DNA from: an uncultured Clostridia bacterium
GTDB taxonomy: Bacteria > Bacillota > Clostridia > TANB77 > CAG-508
Direction: 5' to 3'
Assembly: GCA_944388795.1 (NCBI GenBank)
Contig: CALXKD010000004.1
Location: forward strand, 9,633 to 73,632
DNA length: 64,000 nt
Shown: positions 47,201 to 52,475 of the stretch, piece after piece
Position numbering within the stretch: the first letter of the stretch is position 1
Layout: each line of letters opens with the position of its first letter
Translations under genes and position numbers: made by a program
Notes under the pieces: model-generated
What the model was told of the DNA's origin: nothing
What the model saw: the letters and a program-made list of their open reading frames with translations, nothing else
The model's database searches: none

Positions 47201-47470
47201 TTATCTTTTGAGATTTTGATATTTTCTCTTAGTTGCCATTCCGCCTCTTATGTGCCGTTCGCTCTTATTTTCATCCAGCACTTTACGAACCTGTTCATAT
47301 AAGAGTGGTGAGATAATAGGCAGGCGGTCTGTTAAATCCTTGTGTACTGTAGATTTGGATAAATAGTAAGCCTGGGCAGTTGCCCGAACCGTTGAATGGT
47401 AATCGACTGTGTAGTTTGCTAATTCCCATACCCGTTCATAGATTTCTTCGCTTTTCCTTTTCCTATTCAT
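47201..47470 (-). CDS. spoIIID: SpoIIID-like sporulation transcriptional regulator
   Basis: STVRATAQAYYLSKSTVHKDLTDRLPIISPLLYEQVRKVLDENKSERHIRGGMATKRKY matches the SpoIIID HTH (..VSKSTVHKDLTERLP...) and the C-terminal basic region (HLRGGEATK.KY). Start placed at the internal ATG (MNRKRK...) behind GAAGGGAG; ATG 47488 is also possible. Confidence 0.85.
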   Translation of the reverse strand: MNRKRKSEEIYERVWELANYTVDYHSTVRATAQAYYLSKSTVHKDLTDRLPIISPLLYEQVRKVLDENKSERHIRGGMATKRKYQNLKR

Positions 47471-47582
47471 GTATGCTACTCCCTTCATTTTAAATTAAAC
47501 ACATTATATCACAATTCATAAGGAAAACAAGATTTTTAGGTGAATATTTCTAATATAATAAATATTAAAAAATAAAACATTA

Positions 47583-47616
47583 CAAGAAAAATGGACTCCT
47601 CAGAGAAGGAGTCCAT
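47583..47616 (-). terminator. Terminator of sigma paralog 1
   Basis: atggactcct cagaga aggagtccat: 10-bp stem. A T-run follows on the minus strand. Confidence 0.8.
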
Positions 47617-47623
47617 TATCCTT

Positions 47624-48475
47624 TTAGTTGTTCTCAATAAAAAAGTTTAAATAAAGTTCAGCTAACATTGTAAAAATTTCTTCTGAAATCAATGTTTTTA
47701 TCGAAATGTATGGTTCATTGTTCAATATAGTATATTGGTATTCTTCTTGATGCTCTTTTAGAAATTTTTCAAGTTCATCACGATCAAAGTATTGTGTATC
47801 AAACCTAAAAACAAGAGTTGCTTCTTTAGGACAGAAAACAGAAATTTTACATATATAATCTATTTTAGGTCCATAAGCAATTTCTTTGACCTTTTTACGG
47901 ATTATCTTTAATTTTCTTGAAATACAAGACCGTGAGTATAAAAGTATATCTCCAATTTCCTGCTGTGTTTTTCCAGAAAGCTGATATAAAAATATTACCA
48001 CATCTTTACTTTCCAAGTGATTTAAGATAACTGTTAATAAGTAAGATATGAAATCAGAATCTTCATACAGCTTAATAGAATCATGATTTGAATCAGAAAG
48101 AACATCGTATAGATTTAAATTTTCTTCTTCATTGACAGTAATTTCTAATGATGTTTCATGTGTAGAAAATTTTTTAAAACTCTCTAAGTACATTAAAATT
48201 TCATTCCGTATACAAACAGATGCATACGTAGAAAATTTAGTTTTCTTCTCAATAGAAAATGTAGAAGCTGCTTTGATTAGTCCTATTATACCGATTGAAA
48301 GTAAGTCTTCTTTCGATATGCCATTAAATTCAAAATTTTTTGCCATATATAAGACCAACCGCAAATTTTTCTTAACAAGTATATTTTGAGCTTCCTGACT
48401 GGGAAGTTGTTCTAATATATACTCTTCCTCTGTAGTGGTTAATCGTGGCGGTAATTGTAAAGTACCATCATACAT
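47624..48475 (-). CDS. SigE/SigK-like sigma-70 family factor with extra C-terminal domain (paralog 1)
   Basis: Start MYDGTLQLPPRLTTTEEEYILEQL behind AAGGGAGG. Region 2: KNLRLVLYMAKNF...LLSIGIIGLIKAASTFSIEKKTKFSTYASVCIRNEILMY. Region 4: LSGKTQQEIGDILLYSRSCISRKLKIIRKKVKE. About 75 further aa follow (ISVFCPKEATLVFRFDTQYF...EEYQYTILNNEPYISIK...FTMLAELYLNFFIENN). Confidence 0.85.
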   Translation of the reverse strand: MYDGTLQLPPRLTTTEEEYILEQLPSQEAQNILVKKNLRLVLYMAKNFEFNGISKEDLLSIGIIGLIKAASTFSIEKKTKFSTYASVCIRNEILMYLESFKKFSTHETSLEITVNEEENLNLYDVLSDSNHDSIKLYEDSDFISYLLTVILNHLESKDVVIFLYQLSGKTQQEIGDILLYSRSCISRKLKIIRKKVKEIAYGPKIDYICKISVFCPKEATLVFRFDTQYFDRDELEKFLKEHQEEYQYTILNNEPYISIKTLISEEIFTMLAELYLNFFIENN

Positions 48476-48525
48476 TTTTAAAGCCTCCCTTAACAACTAA
48501 TCCCTAAACCGACTATAATGCACAT

Positions 48526-48554
48526 ATTATATCAAAAGAAATTGATATAATCAA
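48526..48554 (-). promoter_or_regulatory. SigmaA-type promoter of sigma paralog 1
   Basis: Minus strand: TTGATT, 17-nt spacer, TGATATAAT. Confidence 0.65.
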
Positions 48555-48569
48555 TAGAAACATGATGAA

Positions 48570-48612
48570 TTAAAAAAGAGATAAGCGGAGTCTTTATAGT
48601 AAAGTCTCCGCT
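48570..48612 (-). terminator. Terminator of sigma paralog 2
   Basis: agcggagtcttt atagt aaagtctccgct: 12-bp stem with one mismatch. A T-run follows on the minus strand. Confidence 0.8.
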
Positions 48613-48622
48613 TTAGATAAGC

Positions 48623-51238: not shown

Positions 51239-51270
51239 ATAAGCACCATCCATTATGGGGGTGCTTTTCC
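51239..51270 (+). terminator. Terminator of Spo0A-C paralog 1
   Basis: aagcacc atccattatggg ggtgctt ttcc. Confidence 0.6.
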
Positions 51271-51371
51271 TATTGTAAAATATAATATAAAAGTTATTAT
51301 GATTCAAATTTTGAAATAATAACGGAATGTCTTGTAATGAATAAAATATACAAGCTAACAAATACCGTAAA

Positions 51372-51400
51372 TTGACATTATGTAAAGAAAAGCGTATAAT
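51372..51400 (+). promoter_or_regulatory. SigmaA-type promoter of Spo0A-C paralogs 2-3 (duplicate of 50678-50706)
   Basis: TTGACA (51372-51377), 17-nt spacer, TATAAT (51395-51400). Confidence 0.7.
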
Positions 51401-51444
51401 TAAGGTATCTGGGAAAAATCCTGGAAAAAGAAAGGAGTATAAAA

Positions 51445-51852
51445 ATGACAGAAACAAAAGAAGAACTAATTAGGGAGGTTATGCAGATGAAAGAACGGAT
51501 TGAGGAAATCTTCAATCAATTAGGGGTGAATTCTGAGGAAGAGAGTAAAGATATCGAAGAATATCTGAAGCAGCTGGGAATTTTTCCCGACAGATTAGGG
51601 TATACATATTTAAAAATGGCAATTGAAATATGTATGAAAAAATCAGGAGTACGGATATGTAAGGATGTATATCCTGAGATTGCTAAAAAATACCATACAT
51701 CTTTAGCCTGTGTAGAGAAAAATATGAGAACGGCTATAAATGCTGGGATGACTTATGGTAACAAGAAACTTTATAATGAGATATTTGGTAATGAAAGACC
51801 AACAAATACTAGATTCGTAACAACTTTAGCAGAGAAACTTTCAAGCAATTAA
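51445..51852 (+). CDS. Receiver-less Spo0A-C-like protein, paralog 2 (divergent recognition helix)
   Basis: IEEYLKQLGIFPDRLGYTYLKMAIEICMKK...VYPEIAKKYHTSLACVEKNMRTAINAG...LYNEIFGNERPTNTRFVTTLAEKL has the same fold pattern. The SRVERAIRHAIE helix is replaced by ACVEKNMRTAIN. Confidence 0.75.
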   Translation: MTETKEELIREVMQMKERIEEIFNQLGVNSEEESKDIEEYLKQLGIFPDRLGYTYLKMAIEICMKKSGVRICKDVYPEIAKKYHTSLACVEKNMRTAINAGMTYGNKKLYNEIFGNERPTNTRFVTTLAEKLSSN

Positions 51853-51862
51853 GGAGGACAAA

Positions 51863-52330
51863 ATGAAAAAAGAATTAATTGAGGAAATACATACCATAAT
51901 AAACAGCATGCAACGGATAGCAGAAATATTAGAAGAGGGAGAAGAAACAGTAGATGAAGTTTCTCCTAAAGAGGAGGAATTAACTACAGAGGTCATACCA
52001 AATGAAAAAGAAGTTACACAGCTTATTAAAAAGATGGGTATACCTGCACATTTATTGGGATATAACTACTTAAGAACAGGTATAATGATAGCGTTAGAGA
52101 ATCCTGACGTACTCATGTTAATAACAAAAGAGTTATATCCGCAAATTGCCAAAGTATACAATACAGTGCCTCATCGAGTTGAGCGTGCTATAAGGCATGC
52201 AATAGAAGTCTCGATGTCCAGAATTGACTATGACTTTTATCAGGAGGTTTTTGGAAGTTCAATATCGCCTGATAAAGGAAAACCGACCAATTGGGAATAC
52301 ATATCAGCTCTGGTCGAGTACATTAAGTAA
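51863..52330 (+). CDS. Receiver-less Spo0A C-terminal domain protein, paralog 3
   Basis: VTQLIKKMGIPAHLLGYNYLRTGIMIALENPDVLMLITKELYPQIAKVYNTVPHRVERAIRHAIEVSMSRIDYDFYQEVFG...GKPTNWEYISALVEYI. RBS AAGGAGGA. Starts 10 nt after paralog 2, so the two are probably co-transcribed. Confidence 0.88.
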   Translation: MKKELIEEIHTIINSMQRIAEILEEGEETVDEVSPKEEELTTEVIPNEKEVTQLIKKMGIPAHLLGYNYLRTGIMIALENPDVLMLITKELYPQIAKVYNTVPHRVERAIRHAIEVSMSRIDYDFYQEVFGSSISPDKGKPTNWEYISALVEYIK

Positions 52331-52352
52331 AATAAAAAATTCTGTCACGGAA

Positions 52353-52385
52353 CAGGCATCACCGTTTATTGGTGGTGCTTTTCCT
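52353..52385 (+). terminator. Terminator of the Spo0A-C paralog 2-3 unit (duplicate of 51239-51270)
   Basis: ggcatcacc gtttatt ggtggtgctt ttcc. Confidence 0.6.
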
Positions 52386-52475
52386 ATTGTAAAAATATAA
52401 GAATTTGAAAAAACATCAACCATCATTTACATAAAATCATATTATATATAAGATTATGCGAAAGGAGGAATTTAT

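Follow-up and report, generated by a model that had tools for sequence, protein, structure and literature searches.

What is the role of three sporulation-type sigma factors without a pro-peptide that are encoded face to face with three Spo0A effector domains without a receiver? The question is raised by a 64-kb stretch of DNA (the window) from contig CALXKD010000004.1 of an uncultured Clostridia bacterium, in which all genes lie on the plus strand except for one minus-strand block. The block comprises a spoIIID-like gene and three sigma genes, and facing it are three small plus-strand genes of the Spo0A_C type. An earlier reading, made from the letters of the DNA (the sequence-only reading), had placed seven open reading frames (ORFs) in this island and had described the block as the only one of its orientation. 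All seven ORFs were present where it had put them, and a window scan confirmed the second claim, with a change in the sign of the guanine–cytosine (GC) skew confined to the block, at 48–50 kb. The GC content of the island was slightly raised (0.30–0.33 as compared with ~0.25–0.28 elsewhere; ~27–28% for the window). We propose that this is a lineage-specific chromosomal regulatory island in an uncultured bacterium with sporulation genes and ~27% GC. Its core unit would be one alternative sigma factor divergent from one receiver-less Spo0A effector protein. Taken as a whole, with the gating of the sigmas and the regulatory role of the Spo0A proteins included, this picture is offered tentatively, as one that falls somewhat short of an even chance.

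The sigma genes, all on the minus strand, encode proteins of 283 amino acids (sigma1, 47624..48475), 293 amino acids (sigma2, 48623..49504) and 278 amino acids (sigma3, 49675..50511, carrying the allele referred to below as type A-i). In Pfam searches each contained Sigma70_r2 (44–63 bits against a threshold of 24) and a marginal or weak Sigma70_r4 (17–25 bits against 24.1), the matches ending at about residue 205. All three scored above the cut-off of the general sigma-70 family model TIGR02937 (72–98 bits; cut-off 42.9). Their best NCBIfam models were those of SigE and SigK, at 113–190 bits against cut-offs of 252–349: the SigE models NF006158 and TIGR02835 gave 120–190 bits (cut-offs 339 and 348.6) and the SigK models NF004471 and TIGR02846 gave 113–168 bits (cut-offs 252 and 298.65). 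Identity to SigE/SigK across regions 2–4 was ~45%, and the SigE region-2 domain structure 8B3Z was matched at 58–62% identity. On these scores and alignments the proteins are sigma-70 family members of SigE/SigK descent, which share the domain content of SigE and SigK and fall short of them in every other respect tested.

The SigE pro-sequence is ~27 amino acids long and is removed by SpoIIGA. The hidden Markov model (HMM) alignments of the island sigmas began at positions 25–37 of the SigE/SigK models (28–37 for the SigE models), indicating that the pro-peptide is missing. Sequence alignment gave the same picture: canonical SigE has ~25 more N-terminal residues, and the island sigmas start roughly at the N-terminus of mature SigE. 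No spoIIGA, sigG or peptidase gene adjoined the sigma genes, whose neighbours are spoIIID, the sigma paralogues themselves, Spo0A_C genes, CmpB-family genes and dpaB. The sequence-only reading had likewise placed the sigmas nearest to SigE/SigK and without a pro-peptide, and the region 2 and region 4 peptides that it quoted were found in sigma2. Sigma2 retains SigE-like residues in regions 2.4 and 4.2, with recognition helices that are almost those of SigE/SigK and nearest to those of SigE. The region 2.4 and 4.2 residues of sigma1 (VCIRNEI and SRSCISRKLK) are unlike those of SigE/SigK, and the recognition residues of sigma3 read HCIHNGIRMY. The differing residues of sigma1 and sigma3 suggest a diversified promoter specificity.

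No Pfam match was found beyond about residue 205 in any of the three sigmas. Their last 76–86 residues (encoded at 47627–47884 in sigma1, 48626–48880 in sigma2 and 49678–49905 in sigma3) are conserved across the paralogues and distant orthologues and are found in all members of the family. Only a short linker modelled at low confidence (residues 213–215) separates this C-terminal module (C-module) from region 4.2. Its invariant residues are mainly core hydrophobics, and it lacks a conserved stretch of 7–10 alignment columns. Modelled alone with AlphaFold2, the module was predicted to fold as beta-beta-alpha-beta-beta-alpha, with a predicted local distance difference test score (pLDDT) of 85.4 and a predicted template modelling score (pTM) of 0.73. 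Within a full-length model, built for sigma2, the block-mean pLDDT of this region was ~60–92.

The module matched no Pfam family at E ≤ 10, no PHROG and, with a profile, no PDB sequence at E ≤ 10. With Foldseek, neither PDB nor BFVD yielded a match at E ≤ 0.001; the lowest E values were 0.036 and 0.008 respectively. Weak fold likenesses, with template modelling (TM) scores of ~0.4–0.6, were seen to the type III secretion system chaperone SicP, 4PEO, a Staphylococcus hypothetical protein, the C-terminal domain of T4 MotA and ACT-like folds; the resemblance to MotA (TM ~0.5) is no more than a weak lead. When 1.84 billion representative proteins were searched exhaustively with a profile of the module, five matches were obtained, all of them sigmas of this family or fragments (two fragments), showing that the module is never seen alone or fused elsewhere. 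Identification with a known domain was rejected, as Pfam, PHROGs, the PDB profile and Foldseek were all negative. A free-standing module was also considered for two short proteins (P0152 and P0154) and was rejected, both being fragments of sigma genes at contig ends. To judge from these profile and fold searches, the C-module is a new domain family, at the level of the fold, without homologues outside this group of sigmas. An add-on of ~70–85 amino acids matching no known family had been predicted beforehand, and the prediction held.

The three plus-strand genes encode Spo0A_C-1 (154 amino acids, 50759..51223), Spo0A_C-2 (135 amino acids, 51445..51852) and Spo0A_C-3 (155 amino acids, 51863..52330). 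Each matched PF08769 (Spo0A_C) over its full length, positions 1–104, at 2e-24 to 9e-36, with the domain beginning at residue 37–51. The TIGR02875 model of Spo0A gave 56–129 bits against a cut-off of 200 and aligned from model position 111 at the earliest. Response_reg gave no match at E ≤ 0.1 in any of the three proteins, as expected from the earlier description of them as lacking a receiver. Residues 49–152 of Spo0A_C-3, whose effector domain is nearest to the solved Spo0A C-domains, matched the whole solved DNA-binding domain (1FC3 and 1LQ1, E ~4e-26). Copies 1 and 3 retain most or all of the SRVERAIRHAIEV signature; in Spo0A_C-2, the most divergent copy, it is degraded to ACVEKNMRTAINA.

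In Spo0A_C-1 the effector domain is preceded by an amphipathic helix and a linker. The helix shows a 3–4 hydrophobic repeat with invariant E, I and L, and this pattern makes it a possible constitutive dimerisation or docking helix. The sequence-only reading had given the proteins a helical N-terminus of ~45 amino acids; the helix was present, and the N-terminus of Spo0A_C-2 proved shorter, at ~36 amino acids. Descent of the helix from the last helix of the receiver was considered and dropped, because MAFFT placed it arbitrarily against full-length Spo0A and homology could not be claimed. Proteins with Spo0A_C as their sole recognisable domain form a known stand-alone class (PHROG 24603, a 111-position profile), and such genes are common in chromosomal contexts without a sigma gene nearby.

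Could these genes simply be the divergent canonical SigE, SigK and Spo0A of the organism? SigE and SigK are their best-scoring models, and the genes lie between spoIIID and dpaB. Absence of a pro-sequence is not foreign to canonical factors either, as sigma-K of C. difficile is made in mature form without a pro-sequence or proteolytic activation (bioRxiv 10.1101/2022.02.25.481979; see also PMC5025042). That factor is controlled by excision of the skin element and by SigE/SpoIIID-dependent transcription, whereas the island sigmas have no intervening element and carry a C-terminal add-on instead. Their scores, moreover, lie far below the cut-offs, and there are three to four tandem paralogue types instead of two. 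They have promoters of the sigma-A type, and neither spoIIGA nor sigG is adjacent. A receiver-less Spo0A could take no phosphorylation input. Finally, strains with 97–100% identical flanks differ both in their alleles and in how many copies they carry, which would be unexpected for master regulators. We regard this explanation as very improbable. A full-length Spo0A (P0284) on a contig of 26% GC was considered as the canonical Spo0A of the organism and set aside, because it was not attributable to this genome. On a contig of 26% GC (L023, 4107–6753), a full-length Spo0A gene (250 amino acids) lies directly downstream of a 592-amino-acid hybrid kinase-like gene with HATPase_c and Response_reg domains, possibly a kinase for Spo0A that is encoded right beside it, in a related lineage of low GC.

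The same chromosomal slot was occupied in related metagenome contigs, and strains were compared over ~10 metagenome-assembled loci. Three loci (L012, L013 and L018) resembled the window in having an identical sigma2, three sigmas, three Spo0A_C genes and spoIIID. L014 and L015, also with an identical sigma2, carried spoIIID and three sigmas with a single Spo0A_C gene, Spo0A_C-2 being absent from L015. Three sigmas, two Spo0A_C genes and spoIIID were found in L008 (sigma2 90% identical) and in L010 (86%), the latter with a remnant of Spo0A_C-2. In the sister species L002 (flanks 85–94% identical in amino acids, sigma2 63%), two sigmas stood with one Spo0A_C gene and spoIIID, and sigma1 was absent. 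More distant loci (L006, L026 and L027; sigma2 44% identical) had one sigma and one divergent Spo0A_C gene, with neither spoIIID nor dpaB nearby. Thus in three lineages a sigma with the C-module adjoins a gene for a Spo0A_C-only protein, the smallest version being a divergent 1+1 pair. This adjacency is the conserved core, and the 3+3 arrangement arose recently and is specific to certain strains. The linkage proposed by the sequence-only reading is therefore real; its 3+3 stoichiometry of cognate pairs failed, as relatives have 3+2, 3+1, 2+1 and 1+1 genes and an identical sigma2 occurs with one to three Spo0A_C genes.

Traces of gene loss and rearrangement were seen at several of these loci. 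In L002 (8666–8780) an 11-codon remnant ORF stands between a conserved Spo0A_C promoter and the real gene, and in L010 (~3753–4115) ~40% of Spo0A_C-2 is kept at 89% identity. In L014 (59–1381) a 440-amino-acid HTH_28/29/32 transposase-like protein is encoded beside the single Spo0A_C gene, where others have dpaB; it may mark an insertion sequence or a rearrangement at the edge of the island.

The spoIIID-like gene (47201..47470, minus strand) encodes 89 amino acids from an ATG preceded by AAGGGAG, and its product matched Pfam SpoIIID at 1e-33 (PF12116, 115.7 bits against a threshold of 27). On the SpoIIID equivalog model TIGR02844 it scored 107.6 bits, just under the cut-off of 111.5. The gene was 99–100% identical in nucleotides among conspecific strains and was intact also in loci where it had not been called. 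Its promoter, read from the sequence as TTGTTT-16-TGATATAAT (47503..47530, minus strand), is of the same type as the sigma promoters, and the 110 nucleotides upstream of the gene were 84.5% identical in L002. A terminator hairpin with a T-run lies at 47151..47186 on the minus strand (z = −4.24).

Each sigma gene has a promoter of its own on the minus strand, with a 17-nucleotide spacer and a TG extension: TTGATT-17-TATAAT for sigma1 (48526..48554, kept in L008 and L010), TTGAAA-17-TAAAAT for sigma2 (49583..49611, with −35 and −10 kept in L006) and TTGAAT-17-TATAAT for sigma3 (50579..50607). The strict pattern TTGA-N16-TGNTAWAAT occurred five times in 64 kb, as compared with 0.29 expected, and three of the five were the sigma promoters. 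The remaining two (2348–2376 and 41449–41477) lie upstream of ordinary plus-strand genes, 2433–2744 and the housekeeping ABC-F ATPase gene 41690–43300, and were taken as the standard for a housekeeping promoter within the window. Near-consensus sigma-A promoters had been claimed for all three sigma genes, as had individual hairpin terminators that would make them autonomous units. Both features were present and the autonomy was supported, the terminators lying on the minus strand at 47590..47617 (sigma1, z = −4.94), 48583..48613 (sigma2, z = −4.57) and 49623..49654 (sigma3, z = −4.27). Together with that of spoIIID, the four hairpins of the minus-strand genes span z = −4.2 to −4.9, each followed by a T-run. 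The window scan found eight terminator-like sites against 2.3 expected.

On the plus strand, promoters were found for Spo0A_C-1 (TTGACT-17-TATAAT, 50678..50706) and upstream of Spo0A_C-2 (TTGACA-17-TATAAT, a 12/12 match, 51372..51400). Spo0A_C-3 starts 10 nucleotides after Spo0A_C-2 and shares its promoter, so the two form an operon. The plus side, which had been described simply as three genes, thus holds all three in two transcription units. A terminator follows Spo0A_C-3 (52354..52380, plus strand), and its 3' part is duplicated at 96% identity behind Spo0A_C-1 (51256–51280). Repeat analysis also showed that the Spo0A_C promoter and 5' untranslated region are duplicated at 88% identity (51362–51427) and that successive sigma copies lie at intervals of 1014 and 1013 nucleotides. 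The regular sigma spacing and the duplicated Spo0A_C promoter and terminator indicate that the island grew by tandem duplication.

Several conserved elements lie just beyond the −10 boxes. The element GGAAAAGTCC was found 10–11 nucleotides past the −10 in the sigma2 promoter (49563..49572, minus strand; 10 nucleotides downstream) and in the Spo0A_C-1 promoter (50718–50727, plus strand), and these are its only exact copies in 64 kb. A copy with one mismatch, GGAAAAATCC, lies in the duplicated Spo0A_C-2 promoter (51412–51421, plus strand). Just past the −10 of sigma3 is a palindrome with 7-bp arms, AATGAGA-N4-TCTCATT (50554..50571, minus strand; z = −2.2), kept in L002, L008 and L010. GGAAAAGTCC and the palindrome are candidate operators or 5' structures.

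Comparison of the ORFs with their surroundings revealed a marked difference in conservation. In L008, L010 and L015 the flanking genes were 96–100% identical in nucleotides to those of the window, and the intergenic promoter and terminator segments were 90–100% identical where present. The sigma3 ORF was only 66% identical in L008 and L010 (55% in amino acids), as compared with 95% in L015. The Spo0A_C-1 ORF was 68–70% identical to that of the window, and Spo0A_C-2 and -3 were 59–64% identical to those of L008. Sigma2 was 90–93% identical in L008 and L010 and 100% in L015, and sigma1 was 94–98% identical among strains. Similarly, the 110 nucleotides upstream of the sigma genes were 90–94% identical in L002 (sigma2 94%, sigma3 90%), as compared with 70–75% for the coding sequence. 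Synonymous divergence (dS) was saturated in the divergent sigma3 and Spo0A_C ORFs (~1.7–2.8 or not computable), against 0.02–0.26 in the flanks, indicating that old alleles have been brought together and not that local evolution has been fast. Within sigma allele types the ratio of non-synonymous to synonymous divergence (dN/dS) was ~0.2–0.3, as compared with mostly 0.02–0.12 in the flanks; the sigmas are thus constrained and functional, though less constrained than their neighbours.

The slot of sigma3 (sigma-A) holds at least two allele types: A-i in the window, L012 and L016 (93% in L014 and L015), and A-ii in L008 and L010. The copy in the sister species L002 was 68–70% identical to type A-ii. 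The most divergent part of sigma3 was region 2 (47–49% identity). In L010, L014 and L015 the slot of Spo0A_C-1 holds a 149-amino-acid allele to which the window copy is 62% identical. This allele, 95–100% identical among the three loci, stands beside both A-ii and A-i-like sigmas that are mutually 54–55% identical; allele types therefore do not covary. Hence the ORFs behave as exchangeable cassettes of variable copy number within a fixed promoter and terminator frame, and not as fixed 1:1 pairs.

These data bear directly on whether the island is a self-contained module of three cognate pairs, in which each Spo0A_C protein docks by its N-terminal helix on the C-module of its own sigma. Spo0A contacts sigma-A near region 4.2, and the C-module lies directly after region 4.2. 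A divergent sigma/Spo0A_C pair has been kept in three lineages, and both genes share the conserved intergenic frame and GGAAAAGTCC. Against such pairs, sigma to Spo0A_C ratios of 3:3, 3:2, 3:1, 2:1 and 1:1 occur, one Spo0A_C allele stands beside two very different sigmas, and Spo0A_C-only genes are common where no sigma is near. Such pairing is unlikely, although it retains an appreciable share of the probability.

Another explanation takes the diversity itself to be what is selected: balancing or diversifying selection would act on the locus, which might be a developmental switch that differs between strains or a counter to phage Spo0A_C and sigma hijackers. Replacement of old, dS-saturated alleles inside a 90–100% conserved frame would be expected in that case, as would the raised dN/dS, the sharing of type A-ii across species (L008 and L010 versus L002) and the gain, loss and decay of genes. 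The comparison draws on the ten or so loci described, and differential loss of old paralogues could look alike. Apart from a generic resemblance of sigma region 2 to MzaA, PADLOC found no signature of a defence system. We consider selection of this kind unlikely. One elaboration of it would be a polymorphic cassette system kept diverse by selection, in which each strain has its own set of ready-made sigmas, gated by a new class of C-terminal regulatory domain, and of phosphorylation-independent Spo0A effectors. These would re-time, diversify or protect sporulation, for example against phage hijackers with a Spo0A_C or sigma of their own, and recombination within the frame of conserved promoters and terminators would allow ORFs to be swapped. 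This more specific version seems distinctly unlikely.

How might the sigma/Spo0A_C unit that we favour operate? The three sigma promoters are near-identical while the recognition residues of the sigmas differ, which points to one common reader rather than to self-transcription. We propose that the housekeeping holoenzyme reads all of the genes from strong extended −10 promoters and that the sigmas are made in mature form. Gating by a pro-peptide would be impossible, as the proteins start at about the mature SigE N-terminus; with proteolytic gating gone, control would fall to the conserved elements past the −10 boxes and to the C-domain. The latter, lying beside region 4, may act after translation, either masking region 4 as an autoinhibitory domain or docking a partner. 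This role is a guess and the weakest step of the picture. The paralogues would send RNA polymerase to different sets of promoters, SigE/SigK-like for sigma2 and not for sigma1 and sigma3. The Spo0A_C proteins would be phosphorylation-independent DNA-binding regulators that modulate sporulation-type promoters, with the amphipathic helix at their N-terminus as the probable means of dimerisation.

Four observations weigh against this proposal. First, the lineage of L007 (sigma2 37% identical; a 3-kb contig) has one sigma beside yabG, veg and a truncated spoIIID, and no Spo0A_C gene was seen on this short contig; the spoIIID there looks truncated or frameshifted on a low-quality contig, and its linkage is correspondingly weak. 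Second, the net charge of the C-module ranges from −8 to +6 and its invariant residues are core hydrophobics, so that no surface property indicates DNA or a given partner; a DNA-binding or acidic-mimic role read from charge was dropped for this reason. Third, the 0A-box TGNCGAA was not enriched in the window (14 against 8.9 expected), and none lay in the intergenic DNA of the island. Fourth, the −10 element of SigE/SigK promoters, of the CATA type, is likewise similar to GATA(T/A)AAT, which makes autoregulation possible.

Might the island instead have come from a phage? The sequence-only reading had offered a foreign 'takeover' origin; on a view of this kind a phage or another mobile element, since domesticated, would have left a module that hijacks or blocks sporulation in its host. 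All three island gene families have PHROG counterparts (11726, 351, 24603 and 37855). Phages of Bacillus and contigs from faecal viromes encode pro-less SigE-like sigmas with 39–47% identity, and virome-contig Spo0A_C proteins were 38–52% identical to Spo0A_C-3. Receiver-less Spo0A has been described in gut phages (PMC10294663), and phages carry truncated spo0A, spoIIID and sigF/sigG/sigE-like sigma genes (Schwartz et al., PMC10294663, PMC9429907). The raised GC of the island and the replacement of alleles between strains would also fit. However, the island lies in the same chromosomal slot in all relatives of the clade, with no integrase, structural or lysis genes, and repeat analysis found no boundary repeats marking a mobile element. 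Matches of sigma2 in phage and plasmid collections comprised the sigma body only (26–47% identity, no better than to bacterial SigE), stopped at about residue 206–236 and in no case covered ≥ 80% of the query; the C-module was absent from these collections, with no PHROG and no significant BFVD match. The island shares with phage-carried regulators the receiver-less Spo0A and the presence of SpoIIID and sigmas outside their canonical context, and differs in its syntenic slot, its lack of phage genes, its C-module and a sigma/Spo0A_C linkage that was not reported in that phage work. The takeover origin thus found no support, and a phage remnant is decidedly improbable; an ancient phage contribution to the island is possible. 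On one phage contig (L020, 3971–5540), which also carries holin, amidase, SNF2 helicase and thymidylate synthase genes, a 179-amino-acid Spo0A_C-only gene follows one for a 297-amino-acid protein without a recognised domain.

Bacillus comQXP pherotypes and staphylococcal agr groups are divergent regulatory alleles within a species, between conserved flanks, in which signal and receptor alleles covary. The island has similarly deep allelic divergence between conserved flanks and differs in that its alleles do not covary and encode transcription factors without an evident signal. The C-terminal extensions of ECF41 and ECF42 sigma factors are SnoaL-like or TPR. These factors have no identified anti-sigma, and their fused C-terminal domain possibly regulates them in cis (PMC7826278). 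Their likeness to the island sigmas is by analogy only, the latter being SigE/SigK-like and not ECF, with no SnoaL-like or TPR match and an unmatched fold.

The sequence-only reading had also held that both canonical control modules are absent and that the architecture is undescribed. The absence stands, and each half of it has a precedent, in gut-phage Spo0A (PMC10294663) and in C. difficile sigma-K. In the literature searched, no paper was found that describes SigE/SigK-derived sigmas with such a C-terminal domain, or this island. The stand-alone Spo0A_C class is known; what is new is the C-terminal domain, its exclusive tie to a SigE/SigK-derived clade, the pairing with Spo0A_C and the cassette-like polymorphism. 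If the sigmas are active, they would form a group of SigE/SigK descent in which a C-terminal domain takes the place of the N-terminal pro-peptide as the means of control. Their pairing with a receiver-less Spo0A suggests a route by which sporulation-type promoters could be driven that bypasses both the phosphorelay and the proteolytic checkpoints between compartments. Cassette-like replacement of ORFs between near-identical strains is unusual for core regulators and points to developmental diversity at the strain level or to conflict with phages. Only a small uncultured clade has the family, and the function proposed for it here is read from sequence.

The flanks of the island are ordinary chromosomal DNA. 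One contains genes for CmpB-family membrane proteins, a VTT protein, an acetyltransferase and an ABC-F protein, and the other dpaB and genes for a LysM/YneA-like protein, PepF (pepF) and a dockerin protein. dpaB, for subunit B of dipicolinate synthase, lies directly beyond the island (52476–53054; 266 bits, cut-off 156) and is not preceded by dpaA. Upstream of it are a weak sigma-A-like match (52426–52454) and an AC-N15-CATAAAATC stretch (52413–52438) that resembles a SigK-type promoter. The dockerin protein (56424–59240, 938 amino acids) has a C-terminal type I dockerin as its only recognised domain, and a dockerin protein is found in the sister species L002 too.

Elsewhere in the window, two adjoining genes (15349–20776) encode large surface proteins of 967 and 838 amino acids with Big_2 repeats and hyaluronate-lyase N-terminal beta domains, to which the latter protein adds an Amidase_3 domain. 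A cell-envelope glycosylation cluster (22768–34037) includes a fused GT2/GT4 glycosyltransferase (784 amino acids) together with a pair of membrane proteins of the YfhO family (538 and 860 amino acids). The IMPDH ORF (12676–14253) is 525 amino acids long; all close homologues have 501 amino acids, covering 95% of the ORF, and this uniform length indicates that the true start is probably ~24 codons downstream. The IMPDH protein cluster is very abundant in metagenomes, the top cluster having 618 members, and one relative lies on a 1.39-Mb contig.

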